40,212 nucleotides of DNA from a virus (Duplodnaviria; Heunggongvirae; Uroviricota; Caudoviricetes): positions 99,895 to 140,106 of IMG/VR virus record IMGVR_UViG_3300031521_000016; one strand, 5' to 3'. The position numbers were made by a program, and so were the translations under genes. Below are positions 1-39,056 of this stretch, one piece after another; position 1 is the stretch's first letter, and each line of letters opens with the position of its first letter. The notes under the pieces are model-generated. The model was not told where the DNA came from. It saw only the letters and a program-made list of their open reading frames with translations, and did not search any database.

Positions 1-320
1 TGGACATTTGTTATGCCAACTGCTCGTATACCCAATTCACATAGATTACTATTAAACAGTTCATTTGCTAATTTGCCCTTTTCACTGTTCAAAAACTCTA
101 TGTGACCGAATATTTTCATGTCTTCTGATGAAATATCAGTTATTGCATGTGTAGCATTACCTAAGTGTATTTCACAAGTGTCTGGATGTCCTAATTCACC
201 AATACATAGACTATTTTCTCTATTTAAGAATTTATCTATTGCAGTATTAACAGATTCTTCATTCACGTTATACCATCGTGTTGAATTAAAATCTGTAAGC
301 AAAACTTTATTTTTGTTCAT
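1..320 (-). CDS. T4 gp21-like prohead protease homolog (S80 family), truncated by window edge, catalytic Ser apparently replaced
   Basis: Not in ORF track because it runs off the window. Manual translation from ATG at 320: MNKNKVLLTDFNSTRWYNVNEESVNTAIDKFLNRENSLCIGELGHPDTCEIHLGNATHAITDISSEDMKIFGHIEFLNSEKGKLANELFNSNLCELGIRAVGITNV. GELGHP and the G-x-x-x-L-x-(T/S)-x-x-G-K pattern match gp21. Confidence 0.75.
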   Translation of the reverse strand, partial: MNKNKVLLTDFNSTRWYNVNEESVNTAIDKFLNRENSLCIGELGHPDTCEIHLGNATHAITDISSEDMKIFGHIEFLNSEKGKLANELFNSNLCELGIRAVGITNV

Positions 321-576
321 TTTGCAGTCTATCTATTTCTGCAGCAATAAGTGCTCCAGCAACTGTTAATTGTTCAATTTTAGTTTTGTTGACTATCTTT
401 TCTCTGAATTTAGTAGTCCATTGCCATGGCCATTCAAATATTTGTTGATCTATGCAGAACAAAGCGGCTTTAATAAGCTCGCCTTGTTTATAGTCTTCAT
501 CATTCTGAAGATTCCAATTGTGTTTTACAATCTGTTCTTCACGTTCTTCTGATATTAATTCGCTTCCCTTTTTCAT
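307..576 (-). CDS. conserved phage hypothetical protein (WPW...GALIAAEIDRL type)
   Basis: 89-aa ORF overlapping both neighbours; motifs EREEQI, GELIKAA, WPW and AGALIAAEIDRL recur in small phage proteins. Confidence 0.7.
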   Translation of the reverse strand: MKKGSELISEEREEQIVKHNWNLQNDEDYKQGELIKAALFCIDQQIFEWPWQWTTKFREKIVNKTKIEQLTVAGALIAAEIDRLQNEQK

Positions 577-956
577 AAATTTGTACCGTTTACTCTATCT
601 TCTATTTCATTCAATCTTTCATCTTTGACATACTTTATGCCATAGTGTGCACATAAATCTTTCAATGAAAAATAGATAGGGATATTATTTTCTTTTGCTA
701 CTTTTTCTTCTTCGTCTGCTCCACGACTTTTACCTGGTAGTCTTAGCATGCAATCTGCTACTTTTAACCATTCAAAATCCCATTGTAACCATTCATCATC
801 TGTTCTTGGATAAAACATGTGATGAAAATGTGCATAAAGTGGGTTAAAAGGCGCAAAACCTAACCTCGATAATTCTTCAAACTTATCTATTTGTCTTCTT
901 ACATTTAATGCTGAATCGCCTAATGTATAAGGACTTGCTACGTAAACTCTAATCAT
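573..956 (-). CDS. DUF4406/DUF1937-type nucleoside 2-deoxyribosyltransferase-like protein
   Basis: VYVASPY, GFAPFNP, WDFEWLKVADCMLRLPG, SRGADEE motifs. Confidence 0.8.
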   Translation of the reverse strand: MIRVYVASPYTLGDSALNVRRQIDKFEELSRLGFAPFNPLYAHFHHMFYPRTDDEWLQWDFEWLKVADCMLRLPGKSRGADEEEKVAKENNIPIYFSLKDLCAHYGIKYVKDERLNEIEDRVNGTNL

Positions 957-5212: not shown

Positions 5213-5220
5213 TATATATA
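5213..5220 (-). promoter_or_regulatory. TATATATA variant of putative late-promoter box
   Basis: One mismatch to GATATATA, 9 nt upstream of endonuclease ATG. Confidence 0.4.
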
Positions 5221-8372: not shown

Positions 8373-9682
8373 TATAGCCCTCCTTCGATAATTTGTGAGT
8401 TCAAATCTTCCAATATTCGCATATAATCGTAGTTGATAGTAAATCGTTTCTTAGAACCTTTATATCCTTCATCTCTATTTACAAGATTTTTGAAATAATA
8501 TTCATTATTCATTAACATCATACTATCTTGAATAATACCGAACATTGAGTCGACCGTGTGTATAAGACCAGCAGATTCAGAAATTTGTTCAATTGTAACA
8601 TCTGATGCATCGTATGCACCTCTATTAAACTGAGTAGCTGTCAAAATAGTCCAGTTATTTCTCATTGCCATGGCACGTAAATCTTCAGCAATCTGTTTAA
8701 TCTTCATATAAGTATTTTCCGTATTTGGATTTCTCCAGTTACGCATAATATTTATATAGTCGAGAACTATCAGCTTAAACTTTATGCCTTTTAGTTCTTC
8801 CATTCTTTTTAGCCAATTTTCAACGTCTATAACGGAAGCAGTTGATGTAGGAAACTCTTTTACTTTCAAAGCTCCAGGTGTACCAAACATACTATTTGAT
8901 GACACATTGGCAAGTCTTTTCTTTATTTCTGCACCGTCTTCAGCTATAGTTGCATATTCTTGCATTTTAATTCCTAATAGATTAGCACCCAATCTCTTGA
9001 TTACTTTTCTATCTGCCATCTCAAATGAAATATATGCTGTGTTATATCCATTTCGTACACCTTGTGAAGCTAAATTGGCTAACCAAATTGACTTACCAAT
9101 CTTAGGCTGTCCAGCTAATACGATTAAAGTTTTTGGAGTATAACCACCACCTAGAACTGTATCGATATACTCGTATCCAGATGAGAACGTTTCATTCTTA
9201 AATTGTCTGTGTGATTCAGGATTTGAAAAATCCAAACCTTCATCAAATTTAAAGTCTACATTATTTCTATCTGATATGATAGATTTTGCAGTCTGTACTA
9301 CATCTTTTACGTTTTCAGTATCTACTTTTGCAGTCTTAAGATATTGTACCAAATCTATAACAGATGCATCTAGATTTTTATATTCTATCCATGCTTCTGC
9401 TGATTCTGCAAGCCAAGTCTCTTCATATTGAGACATGTTAATCTCATATATAGCATCAATACGTTCATTTGGCAATCTTTCATCTAATCCCTTTAGTTTT
9501 GCAAGTTCTTTTATCTGAGATGCCGTTGGAGCTTTATGATACCGTTCTCTAAATTCTTTTCGAATATCGAAAACCTCTTTTAATGCTGGTATAGAAAAGA
9601 AGCGTGAAGATACAATTCCTTCTAATTCAGGACGTTGATCTATATAGTGATAAAAAATTTTTTCTAAATGTTGTGATTGCAT
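8372..9682 (-). CDS. dnaB: replicative DNA helicase, DnaB-like (T4 gp41)
   Basis: Walker A GQPKIGKS, SFEM, VLDYINIM, LRAMA...LTATQFNR. Confidence 0.93.
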   Translation of the reverse strand: MQSQHLEKIFYHYIDQRPELEGIVSSRFFSIPALKEVFDIRKEFRERYHKAPTASQIKELAKLKGLDERLPNERIDAIYEINMSQYEETWLAESAEAWIEYKNLDASVIDLVQYLKTAKVDTENVKDVVQTAKSIISDRNNVDFKFDEGLDFSNPESHRQFKNETFSSGYEYIDTVLGGGYTPKTLIVLAGQPKIGKSIWLANLASQGVRNGYNTAYISFEMADRKVIKRLGANLLGIKMQEYATIAEDGAEIKKRLANVSSNSMFGTPGALKVKEFPTSTASVIDVENWLKRMEELKGIKFKLIVLDYINIMRNWRNPNTENTYMKIKQIAEDLRAMAMRNNWTILTATQFNRGAYDASDVTIEQISESAGLIHTVDSMFGIIQDSMMLMNNEYYFKNLVNRDEGYKGSKKRFTINYDYMRILEDLNSQIIEGGL

Positions 9683-10841: not shown

Positions 10842-12104
10842 TTATTCTGCTGATTCTTCTTCGTTTTCTGAATCATCTCCTAATCCAAGTTCTTCAGCTA
10901 AGTCATCCTCATCTGATACATATTTAGGCAATTCAAACATTGGTTTAATGATCTCGTCATCTAACTTATGTAGAATCTCATCAGGCCATACCTCTGCTCT
11001 AAAGATACCTGAACCTTTAATCGTTTTACCCAAATGCTTTACTGCAAAAGTATTAGCTTTTGGATCAGCTTCGTAAATGTAGTTTCCGGTCTTTGTACGT
11101 TCGATTTTAGGTTTTCCTCTGTACATTTTAGGAGTTACACCGTCTTCTTCAAAAATAGGAGTTTCGATAATTTCTTCGATAAGTTTACCTCTTCCTATTC
11201 CGCAACATTCCCATGTAGCATAGTTCTCAAGACCTACGTAAGGATTCATACCTTTGTAGAATGAAATATGGAACTTAACTGCAATAGGTTTTGCAAATCT
11301 GTTCTTGAAAGGTTTCGATGTAACAATGATACCAGTTTTTGAAGCAACTTCTGCTCCGGCATCTGCTCCTGAATCATCCTTCAATTGTGCTTTTCCTAGT
11401 TGCAAAATGATAGAAGCATTATAGATTGCTCCACCACCACCAGAAATGATCTGAGATGGGAAATAAGAACCTACTGCATCATAAGTGTGATTTGTCATGA
11501 TAAGTGGAATCTTAAATTCAGCTAGATCTGTGGTTATAACGCGGAACATTGAACGTAGATTTTGTTGTTTAGTCATATCTCGTTTGTCTGAACCTGAAAG
11601 CGCATCATTAGATTCTTTTTCTGTTGCAAGGTTACCTAATGAATCGATAACGAACATGATCTTTGGTAGTTCTAAACCTTTTTTCTTTTGTTCTCTTAAA
11701 GTTGCACATAGATTCATAACGATATGTCTTGTATGCAAAACAGTTTTTAGAGGTTGGTAACGAACTTTAGATGGATCGATACCGAAGTTTTCCATTGTAC
11801 CCATATCGATAGCGGTTTCAGAGTCACCGTATATGACATAATACCCCATTTTAATAGCTTCTCGTACTACATTTAGTGCCAAGAATGTTTTACCAGTTCC
11901 AGAAGGGCCGGTAAACATTATACCTCTATTTCCTGGAGCTCCTTTGAATAATGATCCACCGATTTGCGCATTTAATACATAATTGCCTGTTGGAATCCAC
12001 TCACTAATTTTAGAAAATTCATTCTCGGTCATTACTGATCCGAGGCCATCGACTTTAGACATTGCCTTGTCTAAATCGTCAAATGAAAAAGTTCCTTTTG
12101 CCAT
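10842..12104 (-). CDS. uvsX: RecA-like recombinase (T4 UvsX)
   Basis: IPTGNYVLNA, Walker A GPSGTGKT, IDSLGNL, NHTY, GGG, KNRF; acidic tail. Confidence 0.95.
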   Translation of the reverse strand: MAKGTFSFDDLDKAMSKVDGLGSVMTENEFSKISEWIPTGNYVLNAQIGGSLFKGAPGNRGIMFTGPSGTGKTFLALNVVREAIKMGYYVIYGDSETAIDMGTMENFGIDPSKVRYQPLKTVLHTRHIVMNLCATLREQKKKGLELPKIMFVIDSLGNLATEKESNDALSGSDKRDMTKQQNLRSMFRVITTDLAEFKIPLIMTNHTYDAVGSYFPSQIISGGGGAIYNASIILQLGKAQLKDDSGADAGAEVASKTGIIVTSKPFKNRFAKPIAVKFHISFYKGMNPYVGLENYATWECCGIGRGKLIEEIIETPIFEEDGVTPKMYRGKPKIERTKTGNYIYEADPKANTFAVKHLGKTIKGSGIFRAEVWPDEILHKLDDEIIKPMFELPKYVSDEDDLAEELGLGDDSENEEESAE

Positions 12105-12277: not shown

Positions 12278-12568
12278 ATGAAAAAATTAACTATTTATGC
12301 AATGTCTTTGATTATCTTATCTGGATGTGCATTTAATCAAAAGAATTCTCCTAAAGAAGTCACTTTAACTAGCAAAAATTACGCTATTAATGACAAAGAC
12401 AAAATCATGCTAATAGATTCTACTTGCTATTCATATGAAAATATGTCAGCAGTTATTTTTCCTGGGAAAAAACGTGGAATTGCAATTGAAACACATGATA
12501 GTGTAGGAAATGCAATGGTTGTTACAGTAATAACAACTGAATCAGAAAAATTACTTGTTATGCGATGA
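12278..12568 (+). CDS. predicted lipoprotein
   Basis: MKK, hydrophobic core and lipobox LSGC; own promoter-like box and terminator. Confidence 0.75.
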   Translation: MKKLTIYAMSLIILSGCAFNQKNSPKEVTLTSKNYAINDKDKIMLIDSTCYSYENMSAVIFPGKKRGIAIETHDSVGNAMVVTVITTESEKLLVMR

Positions 12569-12590
12569 AATCAGTAGAAATACACACTAT

Positions 12591-12631
12591 AAAGGGAGAG
12601 TCAATTATAAAAATTTGACTCTCCCTTTTTT
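12591..12631. terminator. bidirectional intrinsic terminator
   Basis: AAAGGGAGAGTCAA/TTGACTCTCCCTTT perfect inverted repeat between convergent genes, T-run on both strands. Confidence 0.85.
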
Positions 12632-12852
12632 TAGACTTCAACTATATTCGATTGGAAGTTATTTATGACTTTTTGCCTCCATTTTTGTAAGTTATCGATT
12701 TGTTCATCGAATTCTGCAAAAAACTCGGTAGATTCTGAAATTTTTAAGGTCATATCGTTTTGTACAATACAATTAAAACATGACATTTTACTCATTATCG
12801 ATTTATATTCGTTAAATAAGTCTTCTGTATCGTGTACGTCTATTACTTTCAT
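12631..12852 (-). CDS. hypothetical protein
   Basis: 73-aa ORF. Confidence 0.6.
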   Translation of the reverse strand: MKVIDVHDTEDLFNEYKSIMSKMSCFNCIVQNDMTLKISESTEFFAEFDEQIDNLQKWRQKVINNFQSNIVEV

Positions 12853-12856
12853 GTTG

Positions 12857-13270
12857 CTATTTCTTTCTAAATATCAGTTCACTTTCTTCATTATTTACAA
12901 AATCTGCAATATCTTTGAATTTTGTGAAATATTGACCACCATTTGTTTGTACCATTTTTCCTACCTTTGTCAAGCTCTTATGTTGATCTGAATCAAATTC
13001 TAACTCACCATAGTCACCAAAGCAAAAAATTGTCTTTTCTGGGCGCTTATTTGAGTCATCAATAACTTCTGCTATTGAGTACACTCCTTTCATTTCTGGT
13101 GTTATAACATATAAACAAAAATCGCAAGATTCACGTTCTCTTAATTCTTCTTCATAAGCTTCTTCTGTCCATTCTTCTACTACTGGATTAAAGTAGTCTA
13201 TTTTTAGCATGGGAATTAACTCGTCACGCCATGTACTGTCATTGCAGGTACCTCCTAAAAATACTCTCAT
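12857..13270 (-). CDS. nucleoside 2-deoxyribosyltransferase-like protein
   Basis: VFLGGTCNDSTWRD, YFNPVV, YVITP, GVYSIAE. Confidence 0.85.
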   Translation of the reverse strand: MRVFLGGTCNDSTWRDELIPMLKIDYFNPVVEEWTEEAYEEELRERESCDFCLYVITPEMKGVYSIAEVIDDSNKRPEKTIFCFGDYGELEFDSDQHKSLTKVGKMVQTNGGQYFTKFKDIADFVNNEESELIFRKK

Positions 13271-13497
13271 ATTTCTCTATTTATCATTTTTTCAAAATTT
13301 TCTTTATACTGTTCTCTATCTGCTTCTGATTCGAATGTCATAGGAATCAGATCGGGTTCTCGTCCTTCACGTAAACTATCTATCATTTCTTCATTAATAG
13401 TCTTTCTTATTTCTCTAGCTAATACAGTAGATAGTACGTCACCTACATCCATGCCGTAATGTGTAAATTGTTCTTCCATGTCATATCGTATCACCAT
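13267..13497 (-). CDS. miniprotein resembling the T4 gp23 major capsid spine helix
   Basis: HYGMDVGDVLSTVLAREIRKTINEEMIDSL vs recalled T4 gp23 VHGMDADAELSGILATEIMLEINREVVDWI. Confidence 0.7.
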   Translation of the reverse strand: MVIRYDMEEQFTHYGMDVGDVLSTVLAREIRKTINEEMIDSLREGREPDLIPMTFESEADREQYKENFEKMINREI

Positions 13498-13644
13498 TTA
13501 CGTGGTGACAAGGTTTTTTCCATTGTAGCTGTCTAAAATTTCAAGTTTTAGTTTTTTCGCTTCTAATACTTTTCCCTTTGTCTTTAGACGATCATATTCT
13601 TTCCAACGTTCATCGTCGGATATTTTAAGCTTCTTCGTTTTCAT
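13498..13644 (-). CDS. small basic hypothetical protein (48 aa, below ORF-track cutoff)
   Basis: MKTKKLKISDDERWKEYDRLKTKGKVLEAKKLKLEILDSYNGKNLVTT; TAATG overlap upstream and abutting ATG downstream. Confidence 0.6.
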   Translation of the reverse strand: MKTKKLKISDDERWKEYDRLKTKGKVLEAKKLKLEILDSYNGKNLVTT

Positions 13645-13961
13645 TAGAATAGCCGTAAAGGGTCTTTAAAATCTTTAAACTGGTCTGGAGCTACATAGTA
13701 CATGCCTATTTTATAGTCAGCATAAGAAACTGTCTTTAGTTGATAATAGACTTTTATCGTATCGTCATCTGGTATCATCCAGAAATAAAAATAAGGGACG
13801 TTTGTGTCCTCTATTTTATTTCCAAATTTACTGTGAAGGTTTGGAATTATCTGTGATTCAGAAAACTCTACATAAGCTCCTCTACCGCCATGTACTACTC
13901 TGGTAAATTCATGAGCAAATAAATTGCCATTTATTGTGATTAATTCTTGTTTAGTGCTCAT
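13644..13961 (-). CDS. conserved hypothetical protein (HGGRGAYVEF motif)
   Basis: 105 aa, aromatic-rich; coupled to neighbours. Confidence 0.7.
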   Translation of the reverse strand: MSTKQELITINGNLFAHEFTRVVHGGRGAYVEFSESQIIPNLHSKFGNKIEDTNVPYFYFWMIPDDDTIKVYYQLKTVSYADYKIGMYYVAPDQFKDFKDPLRLF

Positions 13962-15226
13962 TGTAAGTTAAATAAGTTACGACCAAACTTTTTATTGAAT
14001 TTTCTTGCCATTTCAGTGGTTAGATACTGTTTTCGAGATTCATCTTCTGTATCTAATGTCTGACTACCAAGATGGGTTACAGATGATGTCGATATCAAAT
14101 AGTGTTTTATACCGGAATTCAATAACTGTTCTCTATAGCTATCGTCAGCACACCAAAATTCAAAATCTTCATCGAAACCACTTATTTTATCCCAAACTTT
14201 TCGTTTTAGACAGATACACCATCCACTGATATGTTTTCCAGTTTCATATCCCATGATTGCTCCATACATATCTCTTTGTAGAAGATTTTTTGGACATTTA
14301 GGTGACATACTATCATATCCATATTTGAGCAATTGAGTAGCCCATGAATCGTTAAATATCAAGTCATTATTACATACACAAACGTATTCACTTTTGCCTT
14401 CTGCAATTCCTATATTAGCAAACTTGTTATAGTTAAACTTGCCTTCTGGGTGAATAGTTTTTACTTTATCGTAAGTAACACCCTTTATAGATTCTACAAC
14501 TATTACATTGAATAATCCTGCTCTATCTGAAGCATATAGACTTTTAATGCAGTCTTCAGTTAATTTCTTAAATGCATCAGTTTTTGCATAAGACAGTATG
14601 ACAATGTCTATAGTACTATTATCATATTCGACTATCTTATTTTGTATGATGTTATCTGTATCAATAGGCTCCATTGTCAATTCTAACTCATCATACGAAA
14701 ATTTGAAAAAATAGAGAGCTTCATAGATATTAAACTCTGTACGAATTTTACTTTTTACGTATGTAATATAGTCGGGGCGATTTACAGCATTCTTTACTAT
14801 GTCACGTTTTATGCACATTAAATGATTAGGTGATCCGTATAATGATACTACCTTATCGTTCACTATTTCTTCTTTGAGCTCTTCATTATCATAGTTCATC
14901 GATAAGAAACATGGTACTATTTCATCTTCATTTATATGCTGATCTATGACAAAGTTTATAACGTCAACATCTTTAGAAGTGGCATCGTACAAAGAAGCAA
15001 TATAGTTATCTGATACATCATCATTATCGTCAATAAATGCTACATATTTCCCAGTAGACATTTCTACTAATTGTCTACGCTTCTTACTTATTTCAACACG
15101 CTGATTGTCTAAGAGACAGATTATTTCAACGTCTTTATATTGTTCAGCCTGATCAGAGATTTTCTGTATAAGAGTAAGTGTATTTGCTTTTGACGTTATA
15201 CTACATACTAATATTGATAGTTTCAT
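13958..15226 (-). CDS. two-domain family 2 glycosyltransferase (GT2-GT2); start probably 15226
   Basis: Domain 1 KLSILVCS...GKYVAFIDDND; domain 2 IDIVILSY...FNYNKFANIG...YVCVCNND...ISGWC...FEFWCADD; ATGA overlap at 15223-15226 favours this start over 15298. Confidence 0.88.
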   Translation of the reverse strand: MKLSILVCSITSKANTLTLIQKISDQAEQYKDVEIICLLDNQRVEISKKRRQLVEMSTGKYVAFIDDNDDVSDNYIASLYDATSKDVDVINFVIDQHINEDEIVPCFLSMNYDNEELKEEIVNDKVVSLYGSPNHLMCIKRDIVKNAVNRPDYITYVKSKIRTEFNIYEALYFFKFSYDELELTMEPIDTDNIIQNKIVEYDNSTIDIVILSYAKTDAFKKLTEDCIKSLYASDRAGLFNVIVVESIKGVTYDKVKTIHPEGKFNYNKFANIGIAEGKSEYVCVCNNDLIFNDSWATQLLKYGYDSMSPKCPKNLLQRDMYGAIMGYETGKHISGWCICLKRKVWDKISGFDEDFEFWCADDSYREQLLNSGIKHYLISTSSVTHLGSQTLDTEDESRKQYLTTEMARKFNKKFGRNLFNLQ

Positions 15227-16095
15227 TTCTTCTTTTTCAATTTCTCTTTTAAAATATCGCTTAAATATACTAAAAGATTGTATTTTCTTTCGTCCCATTT
15301 TATCATTCTGTATATAAGAGGTTGTTCTTCAAATGAAGAAACTGCAATATTTTTATTGAGTACATAACGTCTTCTCATATGAACATCAACCACAGTCTCT
15401 ATATCTTCAGCTTTATCTTTATCTTCTATTACTGCTATTACGCCATTGTACACAGAATTCTCAGAATATTTTACACCCATGATTATTGGTGCGTCCATCT
15501 TTGCATATAAATCTACAATAACGGATATACCATGTATATTTCCTATTACTTCAGTTCCACTGAACTCGGTAGAATGTGTTGTGTTATAGTTAAAATTAGT
15601 ATGACCTTCTATTATACATGCAGATTTTTTTGATACGATAACGAAATCGGCCAATTGTTGAGTATCTCTTAGTATTTTTTGTCTACACTTATGTATCTCT
15701 TTTACTATATCGTAAGACGTTACTATCTGAGTACGTGGTTCATACTTAAACCACTTGAATAATTTAGCTTGTGTCGGTGTAAAATTTCTTCTATATGAAT
15801 CTTCTGATAATCTATACAATTCTTGACCAATACGTTTTTCAAAATATGAATCCATTTCGGTTAGAATTACATGACTCACTTTTTGCTCCGGTATGATACC
15901 CATTCTAGTAAGATTGTTATAGTCAGTTTCGTGTATGACAGTATCAACTTTATATGGCTGCAGTTTAATGAGCTTAGATTTAATTTCTAACATTAACTGT
16001 GCATATTTGTAATTATACGCCCTATATATTGCTTCGTATCTGTTTAGATTACGAGGGTTTTTTTTTACACAAACAAAATCTGATAGTTTTTTCAT
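15223..16095 (-). CDS. divergent gp23/gp24-like (HK97-fold) capsid protein homolog, shortened
   Basis: EIHKCRQKILRDTQQLADFVIVS and VIGNIHGISVIVDLYAKMDAPIIMGVK match recalled gp23 QIDKEAVEIARQTGRGEGNFIIAS and FAGVLGGKYRVYIDQYAKQDYFTVGYK. Confidence 0.65.
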   Translation of the reverse strand: MKKLSDFVCVKKNPRNLNRYEAIYRAYNYKYAQLMLEIKSKLIKLQPYKVDTVIHETDYNNLTRMGIIPEQKVSHVILTEMDSYFEKRIGQELYRLSEDSYRRNFTPTQAKLFKWFKYEPRTQIVTSYDIVKEIHKCRQKILRDTQQLADFVIVSKKSACIIEGHTNFNYNTTHSTEFSGTEVIGNIHGISVIVDLYAKMDAPIIMGVKYSENSVYNGVIAVIEDKDKAEDIETVVDVHMRRRYVLNKNIAVSSFEEQPLIYRMIKWDERKYNLLVYLSDILKEKLKKKK

Positions 16096-16343
16096 TAGTT
16101 CATTCTTATTTTTTTCTTATTAACTAACGTATCTCTGAATAATACAGCAGAACTTATAACGTCTTCAAATTCCATAGTTTGCCACACTACTAATGATTGC
16201 ATAAATTCTACATCATTTGCCTCATCTCTGAGTACTGGATCGCCATCTTCTGCATCTATCAAAGATATTCCGTGTTTGTGTAATTCTAAAACTATTCTTG
16301 CATACTTATCGAATGCATCCTCAAATCTTATTTTTTCACTCAT
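16095..16343 (-). CDS. hypothetical protein
   Basis: 82-aa ORF. Confidence 0.6.
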   Translation of the reverse strand: MSEKIRFEDAFDKYARIVLELHKHGISLIDAEDGDPVLRDEANDVEFMQSLVVWQTMEFEDVISSAVLFRDTLVNKKKIRMN

Positions 16344-16590
16344 CCTTTAATTGTAATTTAGTATTCGCAATAGATTCTTCATTTATTACGATTTCATCTT
16401 CATACATGAAACCTTCACAGTCATGCTTATATGCATGCATAACTTCTGCATTTTTCTTGCACTGATCTATTGCTAGTTCACATGCTTCACGCATTGCAGC
16501 AATAGCATCTTCGACTTCAATATTATTGTTCCAAATCGATCCATTAGCTTTTAAGATTTCTCTTAAGTTTATTTCAATCTTTGTATTCAT
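16336..16590 (-). CDS. hypothetical protein
   Basis: 84-aa ORF. Confidence 0.6.
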   Translation of the reverse strand: MNTKIEINLREILKANGSIWNNNIEVEDAIAAMREACELAIDQCKKNAEVMHAYKHDCEGFMYEDEIVINEESIANTKLQLKDE

Positions 16591-16945
16591 TTTCTGTAAA
16601 ATTCTTTAATGATTCATCATTCATTGTCTCAATAGGATATTTCATAATATATGCATCCATTATGATCTGTCTTCTGCTTGCTGCCGCCATAGATTCATAA
16701 TTGTCTACACGATAAGATTGTAACCAAGCATCTTGGGTTTCTCTAACTTCTCTTACTATGTCGTAAAATTTTTCAAGTTCTTCATCATTATCGAATTCTA
16801 ATGTAAATGAACCATCATCGATTATATTAATCTTCTTTACGATGCCATCCTTTGAATGTTCTTTTATAAACTTTTCATACTCTAAACGAGTAGTTTTTGC
16901 TATTTCGTTTAGAGCTGCAGTCTTTTCAGATATATACGCTTTCAT
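16574..16945 (-). CDS. hypothetical protein
   Basis: 123-aa ORF coupled to polymerase gene. Confidence 0.65.
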   Translation of the reverse strand: MKAYISEKTAALNEIAKTTRLEYEKFIKEHSKDGIVKKINIIDDGSFTLEFDNDEELEKFYDIVREVRETQDAWLQSYRVDNYESMAAASRRQIIMDAYIMKYPIETMNDESLKNFTENEYKD

Positions 16946-18126
16946 TAGAATAATTGTGTTGATGTTACAAGTTTTGCACTAATAGCTGAGAAGCCCATAG
17001 CTTCGACGAATCTATTTAATGGAGATATGATAGACTTGTTAAATTGAATATCGTGGTCGATAGGAGGTGCAATTTCTATTGGGAACTGCCCAGGTTGAAA
17101 AGCAAATACATTTTCTTCGTCACGTTTACCTTTTGCCACATAGTACTTAACTTTATCACCAGTTCTAATCAAAGGATATTTCCTTTTATACTTCGAGTTT
17201 GATACTGTAAAGTTATAGATAGCTGCAGCTCTAACGTGAATTGGACATCCTTTTTCTAGTACAAGTTTTTCTTTGTCTTGTAGTACAAACTTTTCATAAT
17301 CTCCAATTGAAGATGCCATAGAAATCTCTTCGATATCTTTAAGCTTATATTCTTCTTTATGTTTACGCAGAATACTTGTAAATTCACTGATAGAAAAATC
17401 ACGTTTCTTGTCTAAGATATATCTTAACATAGACATTAATGTAGTTCTAACGTAAATAGATGAAGAAGATTGAACAATTTCTACACCTTTTGCTGTTATA
17501 TGACTTAAACTGTCAATATCGATACCTGGGTCTTTCCATATTGGATCATATACATACTTCTTTTTTCCTAACCAAATACCTGATGCTGATATTGCTTCAA
17601 GTTCAAAGTTTTGAATATTTGTAGTTCCTGATTTCTTGGCATATAGTTCAAAACACATGTTTAGATATTCCTTTAAGAATATGTCATATATTCTTTTTAT
17701 GAAATCGGTTGGAGAACCTGGCCAGTTGCATTTTGATATGATCTCTTCGAATACAACATAATTTGAATCCGTATCGATATAGAGAACTGGAGCTAAATCT
17801 ATTTTTTGTACTTCAGTTATGCCGAGTTTTTCATGCAATTTAGTATCAAGATGCCAAAACTCCATAAAGTATCTGTTGATTACCTTTTCGGAATATTTGA
17901 TTAAATCTTGGCCTTGTAAAGTAACAGCTTCTGCTACTGCAGTATTATAGAAGATAAACCATGGTGAACCAGTGGCTCCATAAACTGAATTAATGAAAAT
18001 CTTTAAAGCCTGTTCACGGTTCATGTAGAAATTGGCTAAATCTTCCATTCTCTCTATTTCCGCTTCGAGTTCTTGTTTTGTTACGTTATTTGGGTCTATC
18101 TGACACCATTTTAAGTTTTCTATCAT
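16945..18126 (-). CDS. polB: family B DNA polymerase, C-terminal subunit (fingers P helix, palm, thumb; gp43B-like)
   Basis: Motif B KIFINSVYG, motif C YIDTDS, KKKY, KGVE; no exonuclease or motif A. Confidence 0.93.
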   Translation of the reverse strand: MIENLKWCQIDPNNVTKQELEAEIERMEDLANFYMNREQALKIFINSVYGATGSPWFIFYNTAVAEAVTLQGQDLIKYSEKVINRYFMEFWHLDTKLHEKLGITEVQKIDLAPVLYIDTDSNYVVFEEIISKCNWPGSPTDFIKRIYDIFLKEYLNMCFELYAKKSGTTNIQNFELEAISASGIWLGKKKYVYDPIWKDPGIDIDSLSHITAKGVEIVQSSSSIYVRTTLMSMLRYILDKKRDFSISEFTSILRKHKEEYKLKDIEEISMASSIGDYEKFVLQDKEKLVLEKGCPIHVRAAAIYNFTVSNSKYKRKYPLIRTGDKVKYYVAKGKRDEENVFAFQPGQFPIEIAPPIDHDIQFNKSIISPLNRFVEAMGFSAISAKLVTSTQLF

Positions 18127-18147
18127 TGTAAATTATTTTTCTCTATA

Positions 18148-18173
18148 GTTTTAGAGGGTAATTCATAAGGTTC
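18148..18173 (-). promoter_or_regulatory. bipartite promoter-like motif GAACCTTAT-N10-CTAAAAC
   Basis: Upstream of polB C-terminal gene. Confidence 0.55.
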
Positions 18174-18180
18174 ATTATCG

Positions 18181-18291
18181 GTGCTATAACTAGACTCGAA
18201 CTAGTAGTTTTGGAGTTTCCAAATTGGTATATTCCTAGAAATTATATGTTGACTATAAATCCCGTTATTCAACTTTCACCACATATAGCAC
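18181..18291 (-). tRNA. atypical tRNA-like element, 8-bp acceptor stem, long variable arm, predicted CUA anticodon
   Basis: GTGCTATA/TATAGCAC acceptor; ACTAG-TTCGAGT-CTAGT T-arm; TTTGGA-AAC-TCCAAA variable arm; TATAAT-TTCTAGG-AATATA anticodon arm with one mismatch; oversized D region; followed by CGA, not CCA. Confidence 0.65.
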
Positions 18292-18293
18292 TG

Positions 18294-19256
18294 TTACTTA
18301 TTTCGTTTTCCAAAATATGCATTTAAACTTTCGCCCTTCATACTTCTGCCGCCTTTCAGACTTTGAATATCTTCATTTTCAAATGGATCGATTAGATAAT
18401 CTAAGTTCAGACCAGCTTTTTCGTAGAAAAAGTCATCGTATCTATCTCCCCAAATATTGAAGAATACATTTATGATACCGCCCATGTAAATAGATTTTTT
18501 ACCCATTGCTTTTATATGAGTGCCTAAGAACATTGAATATGAAGCGCATGATAAGAATGCGATGTCAAAATCGATCTCTTTAATATCGTTCAGTATACGT
18601 TGACACTCTTCGTGCCAATTATTTGTTGAAATATTGAGACTTTCTTTTGTATCAGATGGTGTGCTGTAAGTTATAGGTGTGTTATAAGTCAACAATTCAA
18701 TATTAGGGAATTGATAGTTTAAATAAAGTTTGTCAATTCTCTCGAATTGATACTGTATACTTTTAGAAAAAGGACTTATTATGAGAATTTTCTTGTCTTT
18801 GCCCCAAATGGAGAATGACTGTAGAAATGGCTTAATCTGTTCGATGAATGCGTATTGATACTTATCTTTTCCTATAGACATGTACTGTAAGAAGTTTTTA
18901 TCTTCATGATTAAAGTTTCTTGTTTCAAACTGATATATGAGATGACTTCCTGCATATGACATATCGTCTCCATCTTTGTAGAATGATATCATATCTTCGA
19001 GATATTTTCGGAAATTCTCTTTCCGCTCATCATGTGAACCAAAATCGAAATACCCATTATAATGTCTTACAACGTCTAGTTTATGTTCTAACCATACTGG
19101 ATTATCTATCAGATTTTTATTACTGAAATATTCTACTATAGCCATATAGTCCGAGCCTCCTATTCTACTGAAAAAATAGGGTCTATCTTTTGACATCAAT
19201 GTCGTAAAATTTTCTATAGCTCTATCTGTATTGTAATCATTATAAATGTTATCCAT
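18294..19256 (-). CDS. GT-D fold (DUF1792-like) glycosyltransferase-related protein
   Basis: SRIGGSD; KKILIISPF; DFDIAFLSCASYSMFLGTHIKAMGKKSIYMGG...IWGDRYD. Confidence 0.65.
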   Translation of the reverse strand: MDNIYNDYNTDRAIENFTTLMSKDRPYFFSRIGGSDYMAIVEYFSNKNLIDNPVWLEHKLDVVRHYNGYFDFGSHDERKENFRKYLEDMISFYKDGDDMSYAGSHLIYQFETRNFNHEDKNFLQYMSIGKDKYQYAFIEQIKPFLQSFSIWGKDKKILIISPFSKSIQYQFERIDKLYLNYQFPNIELLTYNTPITYSTPSDTKESLNISTNNWHEECQRILNDIKEIDFDIAFLSCASYSMFLGTHIKAMGKKSIYMGGIINVFFNIWGDRYDDFFYEKAGLNLDYLIDPFENEDIQSLKGGRSMKGESLNAYFGKRNK

Positions 19257-38391: not shown

Positions 38392-38414
38392 AATTATAAA
38401 TAAAACTAAATACT

Positions 38415-39056
38415 ATGGCAGAAACATTAAAAATCGATAAACTGAAGGGTATTATTCCTGATTCAGTTTTAGCAGAAATTCCAATAACAGCTGAAAAGTT
38501 CAATATAACAACTAATCTAAGATTAGCACATTTTTTATCTCAATGTGCTCATGAAAGTGGTGGTTTTTCAGTCGTAAAAGAAAATTTAAACTATTCTGAA
38601 GATAGAATGGTACAGATATTCAAACATGACTTTGACGTTAATCATGATAAAGTAATATCTGATTCAGAAAAGAAAAAAGCTAAAGAGTTAGCAGGACAAC
38701 CAGATAAGATAGGCAATTTCGTATATGCTAATCAGAATGGAAATGGAAATGAAGCAAGTGGAGACGGATACAAATATTCAGGAAGAGGATATATCCAACT
38801 TACAGGAAGAGTCAACTATGCAGAATTTGATAAATTAGTCACTGAAGACATCATGGAATCTCCAGGATTAGTAGCTACTAAATATCCGTTATCATCTGCA
38901 GCTTTTTATTTCAGTAAGAACAATCTGTGGAAAATATGCGATCAAGGTGCTACAAATAATGTAGTAATACAATTAACTAAACGTATAAACGGTGGTACGA
39001 TTGGACTAGATGATCGATTGGCAAGATTTAAAAAGTATTATGACATACTCAAATAA
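38415..39056 (+). CDS. glycoside hydrolase family 19 endolysin
   Basis: RLAHFLSQCAHESGGF, ENLNYS, GDGYKYSGRGYIQLTGRVNY, RINGGTIGLDDR. Confidence 0.92.
   Translation: MAETLKIDKLKGIIPDSVLAEIPITAEKFNITTNLRLAHFLSQCAHESGGFSVVKENLNYSEDRMVQIFKHDFDVNHDKVISDSEKKKAKELAGQPDKIGNFVYANQNGNGNEASGDGYKYSGRGYIQLTGRVNYAEFDKLVTEDIMESPGLVATKYPLSSAAFYFSKNNLWKICDQGATNNVVIQLTKRINGGTIGLDDRLARFKKYYDILK

Follow-up and report, generated by a model that had tools for sequence, protein, structure and literature searches.

The penton protein of phage T4, gp24, is paralogous to the major capsid protein (MCP) gp23, evolves faster and has the same HK97 fold (PDB 1YUE; 5VF3 chain a). Its 427 residues include an insertion domain, its N-terminus is cleaved, and its gene comes two genes after gp23. 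It is a recent, bypassable addition to the head and is dispensable in bypass mutants (PMC3012670). The gp24 of Vibrio phage nt-1 (YP_008125261.1) is shorter (297 residues), matches positions 126-367 of the Pfam Gp23 family without an insertion domain, and coexists with a full-length MCP from which its gene is displaced: gp23 is 55 kb away, gp55 is the neighbour, and gp47 follows 8 genes (about 5 kb) downstream. Phage phi-pp2, with a short gp24 of 299 residues, is tabulated as having this layout too (PMC3468402). Given the gp24 of the nt-1/KVP40 type, a short and displaced vertex paralog is already an existing pattern. Here we describe a gene of similar size in a 40,212-nt stretch of viral DNA (hereafter the window), the terminal part of the 140,106-bp IMG/VR contig IMGVR_UViG_3300031521_000016 (G000; CheckV completeness 57%). 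The gene (15223-16095, minus strand) encodes 290 residues, and its open reading frame (ORF), family profile and AlphaFold2 model identify the product as a short capsid paralog, a minimal gp23-type protein with the HK97 fold. We conclude that the gp23-type capsid protein has here a genuine paralog, conserved and reduced to a minimal HK97 fold, and suggest that it may occupy a specialised position in the virion.

Taken singly, the 290-residue sequence resembles gp23 only faintly. It matched PHROG 138 ("major head protein") at E 2.7e-5 over residues 120-213, gave no Pfam Gp23 match at E<=1, and scored E 0.061 against T4 gp23 in BLASTP. No match was obtained by tblastn among 50,697 phage records. 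A word-indexed protein search recovered only a variant with 98% identity (two proteins only when the family profile was used), pattern scans of IMG/VR with the window protein and with P0003 found no relatives, and the ESM Atlas yielded only weak Gp23-fragment structure rows and a poor model of the protein. When 1.84 billion representatives were scanned exhaustively with HMMER, 34 proteins were collected into a short family, all of 282-312 residues except one fragment, alignable from end to end at pairwise identities of 20-30%. Taken as a whole, the family spans 282-317 residues. The family alignment (A1) was too divergent for pattern design; a sub-alignment (A2) led to G001, an IMG/VR relative of 348,582 bp rated 100% complete, and to three short metagenome contigs. 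Every one of the 34 members matches phrog_138 (best E 9e-25), and the G001 member reaches 39.6 bits with Pfam PF07068 (cut-off 24.4), a domain also carried by P0031. Used as a profile, A1 matched T4 gp23 at E ~1e-18, positions 32-230 corresponding to gp23 residues 243-451, and, still more strongly, the 550-610-residue MCPs of seven huge phages (E 1e-37 to 1e-50); its match to T4 gp24 was weak (E 2e-3) and confined to the spine helix. The resemblance to gp23 is therefore real, but it takes the family profile and the fold to make it significant. Three gp23-like blocks, which an earlier note on this DNA had read in the same order as in gp23, were recovered with the family profile, where they map to the spine helix and A domain.

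The nearest sequence relatives of the short family are thus T4 gp23 and the 550-610-residue MCPs of huge phages (LR756500-4, LR745206, Lak, G001; phrog_138, phrog_28442, PF07068), to which the family member L036 is 28-31% identical. Spine helix, A-domain motifs and an N-terminal strand motif are held in common. The short proteins differ from the MCPs in having no propeptide, N-arm or insertion domain, in forming a clade of their own with much longer branches, and in the location of their genes. Among deposited phage genomes, only divergent copies in metagenomic huge phages belong to the family. The literature searched yielded no description of the short family, of the dead prohead-protease paralogs discussed below or of the recurrent pairing of the two; a report on huge phages predicted to infect freshwater Bacteroidetes (bioRxiv 10.1101/2021.10.11.463225) does not mention the family.

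Modelling with AlphaFold2 and the family alignment gave a structure with a predicted local distance difference test score of 84.5 and a predicted template modelling score of 0.83. Foldseek returned 340 PDB matches at E<=1e-3; those listed were all HK97-fold capsid proteins or encapsulins, T4 gp24 leading. The predicted fold is therefore clearly HK97, and the one outcome that the earlier note had named as fatal to its proposal, a different fold, did not occur. The nt-1 "head vertex protein" came up among fold matches in BFVD. Structural alignment with VIA-align placed model residues 2-270 on residues 106-521 of T4 gp23 (Z 18.5, root-mean-square deviation 3.4 over 253 residues), residues 1-270 on residues 33-421 of T4 gp24 (Z 18.1, 2.8 over 237 residues) and residues 1-269 on residues 131-383 of HK97 gp5 (Z 15.2, 3.0 over 211 residues). 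HK97 gp5 and the family 1 and family 2 encapsulins have the same minimal domain content and size, and the whole model aligns with them at Z 14-15; beyond the fold, however, no sequence relationship is detectable, and gp5 has an N-arm and a delta domain that the short protein does not share.

These comparisons define what has been kept and what has been lost. Residue 1 of the model corresponds to residue 131 of HK97 gp5, 105-106 of gp23 and 33 of gp24. In each reference the alignment begins right behind the N-arm, so that the short protein has neither this arm nor a propeptide; its N-terminus lies 5 residues ahead of the first core strand, with no propeptide-like segment visible. The model then shows a hairpin of 12+12 residues at positions 19-44, followed by a P-domain strand, a 35-residue spine helix and the A domain, and the hairpin indicates that an E-loop is present. 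The suggestion that both N-arm and E-loop are lacking was accordingly half right: the N-arm is absent, the alignment starting only at HK97 residue 131, but the E-loop is retained as a plain hairpin. In a hidden Markov model (HMM) mapping, positions 7-33 correspond to residues ~100-135 of the huge-phage MCPs (a weak but consistent match) and positions 32-275 to residues ~305-600, and in an E-INS-i alignment the family's N-terminal strand motif fell opposite its gp23 counterpart. By this mapping the short form is an MCP without its first ~100 residues and without an insertion of ~170 residues at the tip of the E-loop. A basic C-terminal helix (residues 274-289) is conserved in the short family and absent from the MCPs.

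The gene itself is intact, as the earlier note had it, with its ATG start and the frame at 15223-16095 verified. The open frame around it extends to 297 codons, only 7 upstream of the ATG, which leaves no longer or hidden N-terminus. A fragmented full-length gene was ruled out by running a 577-position HMM of huge-phage MCPs over all six frames of window positions 12500-18300: only the 290-residue frame and a 76-residue frame (see below) matched, and the N-terminal 300 positions found no match in the flanking DNA. The locus is present in many peat metagenomes, in some runs at up to 100% of the words sampled, and no RNA data set was listed among those that contain it. Contigs from four peat runs showed 9 single-base variants in the gene, 5 synonymous and 4 non-synonymous, with no insertions or deletions, and the frame is intact both in the window and in the 98% identical 290-residue variant. 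Few as these variants are, taken with the conservation of the short gene throughout its family they are consistent with purifying selection.

The relation to gp23 and gp24 was examined in an IQ-TREE phylogeny of 52 rows and 294 columns. Four groups were recovered, each defined by a single split: the short family (support 96/92), the huge-phage MCPs (98/93), T4-type gp23 (99/99) and T4-type gp24, including that of nt-1 (100/97). T4-type gp23 and gp24 unite at 100/100 with the short family outside, and the short family is therefore not orthologous to gp24. Comparison with the true capsid genes, proposed earlier as a check, thus places the short family in a clade of its own, apart from the MCPs. 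The tree makes it an independent lineage of long-branched paralogs. Its end branches mostly measure 0.5-2.2, against 0.05-0.6 for the MCPs, the window copy having the longest in the family (1.69); the faster evolution of the short family relative to the MCPs parallels that of gp24 (0.9) relative to gp23 (0.2). Adding five very divergent huge-phage paralogs introduced long branches that cost the tree its resolution, and their placement was not used. The nt-1 protein is colinear with the short family from the N-terminus. It differs in grouping with the gp24 of T4 and PX29, within the T4-type gp23 plus gp24 clade, in having ~20 more residues at the N-terminus, and in the absence of the basic C-terminal helix. 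T4 gp24, likewise of another clade, has the HK97 fold and the rapid divergence from an MCP in common with the short family, and is set apart by its size, insertion domain, cleaved N-terminus and gene position.

Complete relatives show that the short gene exists alongside a full-length one. G001 encodes a 597-residue MCP at 300.6-302.3 kb, adjoined by the true prohead protease (phrog_207, E 7e-40; the two together at 300-304 kb), and a short form of 296 residues at ~130 kb, amid RNA ligase, epimerase and nucleotidase-like genes. The short copy is thus 170 kb from the full-length MCP and true protease, in agreement with the earlier placement of such a gene outside the head module. In LR756500.1 the MCP lies at 225 kb and a divergent 313-residue short form between DNA polymerase and UvsX, the first of two tandem gp23-derived ORFs (313 and 209 residues) at 246963-248534 (L032:10963-12534). 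Gene order there is the same as in the window: a gp45-like gene, polymerase, short form, UvsX, gp41, gp47, gp46. The UvsX recombinase gene of the window (10842-12104, minus strand), which serves as the downstream anchor of this synteny, has its nearest counterpart in LR756500.1 (462 kb; 42% identity by tblastn), those of the Lak phages coming next. The N-terminal ~80 residues of the 313-residue ORF match phrog_9572, annotated as a sulfatase-modifying factor enzyme. Some other huge phages have additional short gp23-like ORFs 5-12 kb from the MCP. Apart from the position between DNA polymerase and UvsX, gene neighbourhoods differ across members of the family, and no small neighbour was found to be common to the loci compared, save for a pseudo-protease in G001. 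The earlier description of a shortened gp23/gp24-like paralog holds. On the window's own 140-kb contig, A1 detected the 290-residue gene only and no full-length MCP; the true MCP of this phage presumably lies in the missing 43% of the genome.

Two further observations concern the surroundings of the short gene in relatives. An RNA ligase gene is found 2-5 kb from the short paralog in G001 (L010:3783-4874) and in contig L035 (4324-5373), and in T4 rnlB directly follows gene 24 (L041:4637-5641); this proximity may be a remnant of a shared gene order, or coincidence. In L035 the short paralog has, one gene upstream, a gene for a ClpP-like "head maturation protease" (phrog_94, E 1e-34; 269-946); the distance is 6 kb in G001 (L010:16298-16981) and 68 kb in the window's contig (G000:47065-47721).

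The window carries two other derivatives of head genes. At its left edge (1-320, minus strand) lie the first 106 codons of a 225-codon ORF (G000:99537-100214) related to the prohead protease gp21 (phrog_207, E 9e-9 and 4e-8). The earlier note had called this a dead gp21; the catalytic serine is indeed lost, but the gene is whole, not a stub, and simply crosses the edge of the window. We take His85 and Ser140 of T4 gp21 to be its catalytic pair. When the 225-residue protein was aligned with gp21 of T4, nt-1 and PX29 and with the true proteases of huge phages, it was found to retain the histidine of the GEL-xHP motif (T4 His85) and to have Gly-Ile where GVSSRG has its Ser-Ser (T4 Ser140). A sequence search of the PDB with this protein gave no match, its relationship to gp21 being derived from phrog_207 and the alignment. 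Short paralogs in G001 (182 residues), LR756500.1 (134 residues) and LR756501.1 (178 residues), at loci L010:9463-10011, L049 and L050, lack the histidine, the serine or both, whereas the long proteases encoded beside MCPs keep the equivalents of both. As far as their sequences tell, these proteins make up a recurrent family of short gp21-like paralogs, predicted to be catalytically dead, in huge phages, each alongside an intact protease near the MCP. In G001 the pseudo-protease gene and the beginning of the short capsid gene overlap; in G000 the pseudo-protease gene ends a run of morphogenesis genes (portal, gp2-, gp4- and gp55-like genes, an 858-residue ORF and a gp15-like gene). The second derivative is a stand-alone gene of 76 codons (13267-13497, minus strand), similar to the gp23 spine helix (Pfam Gp23, E 3.9e-4, positions 161-208 of 376; huge-phage MCP HMM, E 0.004, positions 341-377). 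It is the second gp23-derived gene in the co-directional string that contains the 290-codon gene, aligns with A1 columns 73-105, where the spine helix of the larger protein also falls, and has a 73-residue homologue with 68% identity. All three head-gene echoes claimed for the window are therefore real. The region they lie in is not devoted to replication alone: portal, gp2-, gp4-, gp55- and gp15-like genes stand just left of the window, which makes a "replication region without head genes" too strong a statement.

What might such a protein do? We see about an even chance, largely on analogy with known vertex proteins, that it is a specialised capsid subunit, probably the penton. As a minimal gp23-type protein it keeps the HK97 core of the lineage's MCP (E-loop, P domain and A domain), having lost the propeptide and N-arm (~100 residues) and the insertion domain of ~170 residues and gained a short basic C-terminal helix. 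It would be a virion component at a specialised position of the lattice, most likely the pentameric vertices, where it would act as a functional analogue of T4 gp24 of independent origin. The dead gp21-like protein may be its assembly partner, for example by linking a subunit without a propeptide to the scaffolding core. The penton is favoured because vertex proteins alone, among characterised proteins, combine this architecture with this genomic behaviour, because the short gene coexists with a full MCP in relatives, and because it is linked to head morphogenesis genes through the pseudo-protease. Of the three roles raised in the earlier note (decoy, vertex variant, size regulator), the vertex variant appears to have the best precedent, in the gp24 of the nt-1/KVP40 type.

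Several points weigh against a penton. The window copy is the most divergent, longest-branched member of the family and the prediction of its fold leans on the family alignment; with no orthology to gp24 in the tree, the vertex role is assigned by analogy. The N-arm, which ties capsomers together in HK97-type lattices, is missing, and the 290-residue protein shows neither a propeptide nor an obvious gp21 cleavage motif. Its gene stands within a tightly coupled string with DNA polymerase, glycosyltransferases and UvsX. Neither of two late-promoter motifs is found upstream of it. The T4-type late promoter TATAAATA occurs only twice in the window, at 8749-8756 (minus strand) and 38395-38402 (plus strand), as against 9.7 copies expected from shuffles, the plus-strand copy standing 20 nt ahead of the one sizeable gene on that strand (38415-39056). 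The other motif, ATATATAG or ATATATTC, precedes ten minus-strand genes of G000 at a distance of 16-43 nt, the gp15-like gene and the 858-residue ORF among them (examples, all on the minus strand, are at 5219, 28926, 33732 and 37047 of the window and at G000:97864, 98218 and 99131), and is a candidate for a lineage-specific late promoter; one copy falls inside the 290-codon gene. A different motif, TTTG...TTATATTT(T)TG, precedes many other genes. Finally, Lak-A2, LR756504.1 and the cultured Tenacibaculum phage pT24 showed no short copy, the last having a full-length MCP only. A patchy distribution is, on the other hand, what would be expected of such a protein, given that T4 gp24 is dispensable in bypass mutants.

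The alternative that survives best is that the short capsid protein, the dead gp21-like protein and the 76-residue protein are a set of head-protein mimics that stay out of the virion and act in the cell as decoys or regulators, which could, for example, soak up host sensors of capsid protein or prohead protease, or tune the assembly or size of the head. We think this unlikely. It would account for the presence of three head-protein derivatives in one co-directional gene string of early or middle appearance, for protease paralogs without catalytic residues in four phages, for the overlap of dead protease and short capsid genes in G001, for the loss of the lattice-bonding N-arm and for the lack of a late-promoter-like motif upstream; LR756500.1, too, has its two gp23-derived genes (313 and 209 residues) between DNA polymerase and UvsX. 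A decoy, however, would have to preserve no more than the epitope that is sensed, whereas the family retains the entire HK97 core at pairwise identities of 20-30%. Position says little about timing, since portal, gp4-, gp15- and gp55-like genes lie on the same strand nearby; the only characterised proteins of this architecture are annotated vertex proteins; and no defence or anti-defence gene was identified beside the short capsid gene. That huge T4-related phages in general maintain a second, stripped-down set of head proteins which builds no virions, whether as immune decoys or as an independent small compartment, strikes us as more doubtful again.

A separate small shell of HK97 type, comparable to those of encapsulins or satellites and with the pseudo-protease as cargo or scaffold, is quite improbable. 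Size and domain content are those of a minimal self-assembling HK97 fold, as the alignment of gp5 and encapsulins over the whole model illustrates, a propeptide is absent, and the conserved basic C-terminal helix has no counterpart in full-length MCPs. Against these features stand a sequence that is clearly derived from gp23 and closest to the MCPs of the host phage lineage itself, and neighbourhoods that, but for the polymerase-to-UvsX position, are not conserved across members. Encapsulins, moreover, have cargo systems, and neither a cargo-type partner nor a targeting peptide was recognised beside the short capsid gene.

It is very improbable that the 290-residue protein is the sole MCP of the phage, with no full-length gp23 in the missing part of the genome. 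Capsid searches did find no other gp23-like gene on the 140-kb fragment, and the fold is complete enough for a shell; but at 57% completeness the contig lacks other expected late genes as well, a 550-610-residue MCP beside a true protease accompanies the short form in every complete relative checked that has one, and the short family forms a clade distinct from the MCPs. Least probable of all is a decaying duplicate without function: for all its long branch and its failure to match Pfam, the gene has an intact frame here and in the 98% variant, at least 34 clusters of full-length homologues, a synonymous excess among population variants (5 vs 4), start and stop translationally coupled to the neighbouring genes, and no frameshifted or truncated allele in the four peat runs.

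Around the gene the reading frames are closely packed. Directly upstream are three small ORFs of 123, 84 and 82 codons (16095-16945, minus strand) of no known family; they have no PHROG match and contain no capsid-protein remnant, and the stop codon of the 82-codon ORF overlaps the ATG of the 290-codon gene. They are preceded by the C-terminal half (393 residues; 16945-18126, minus strand) of a family-B DNA polymerase (PF00136, E 1e-19; phrog_262, positions 494-841 of 856), which is the upstream anchor of the synteny with LR756500.1. The polymerase gene is split in the window, and its counterpart in LR756500.1 (L032:12784-16184) is interrupted by a 567-residue ORF. Directly downstream of the short capsid gene is a GT2-type glycosyltransferase gene (13958-15298, minus strand; PF00535, E 1.8e-10; phrog_8858, E 3.9e-39). 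Its Pfam match begins at residue 25-26, so that the true start is probably the internal Met codon at 15226, which abuts the stop codon of the 290-codon gene. Two glycosyltransferase genes (GT2 and GT-D-like) and two nucleoside 2-deoxyribosyltransferase-like genes are scattered amid the replication genes (window 573-956, 12857-13270, 13958-15298 and 18294-19256), an assortment suggestive of DNA base or sugar modification.

Nearly all genes of the window's contig are on the minus strand. Translation table 11 gives a stop-to-stop coverage of 98%, so that the standard code fits, and an alternative genetic code was dropped on this account. The genes for UvsX, gp41, gp46/47 and DNA polymerase place the phage among the huge uncultured phages of the T4 superfamily. 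Immediately left of the window, directly upstream of gp46/47, G000:91140-99107 contains a portal gene (phrog_213, E 2e-61), a homing endonuclease gene and genes for a gp2-like DNA end protector, a gp4-like head closure protein and a gp55-like late sigma factor, the 858-residue ORF and a gene for a gp15-like tail sheath stabiliser. The gp15-like end of this run is ~16 kb and the portal end ~22 kb from the 290-codon gene; morphogenesis and replication genes are interleaved around the window.

The short family is an independently evolved, minimal gp23 paralog that is widespread in uncultured huge phages. Its genes can be mistaken for an MCP gene or, like the window copy, be missed entirely in annotation. 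Penton proteins are known for T4 (gp24) and have yet to be identified for several jumbo phages; the vertices of jumbo phage phAPEC6, for instance, are closed by an unassigned protein (PMC7247149). The short family offers a concrete candidate for such a function. If it does provide the penton, it would be a second natural example of an MCP pared down to a vertex subunit. Its recurrent pairing with dead protease paralogs suggests a level of head assembly not yet studied or, less probably, one of manipulation of the host.

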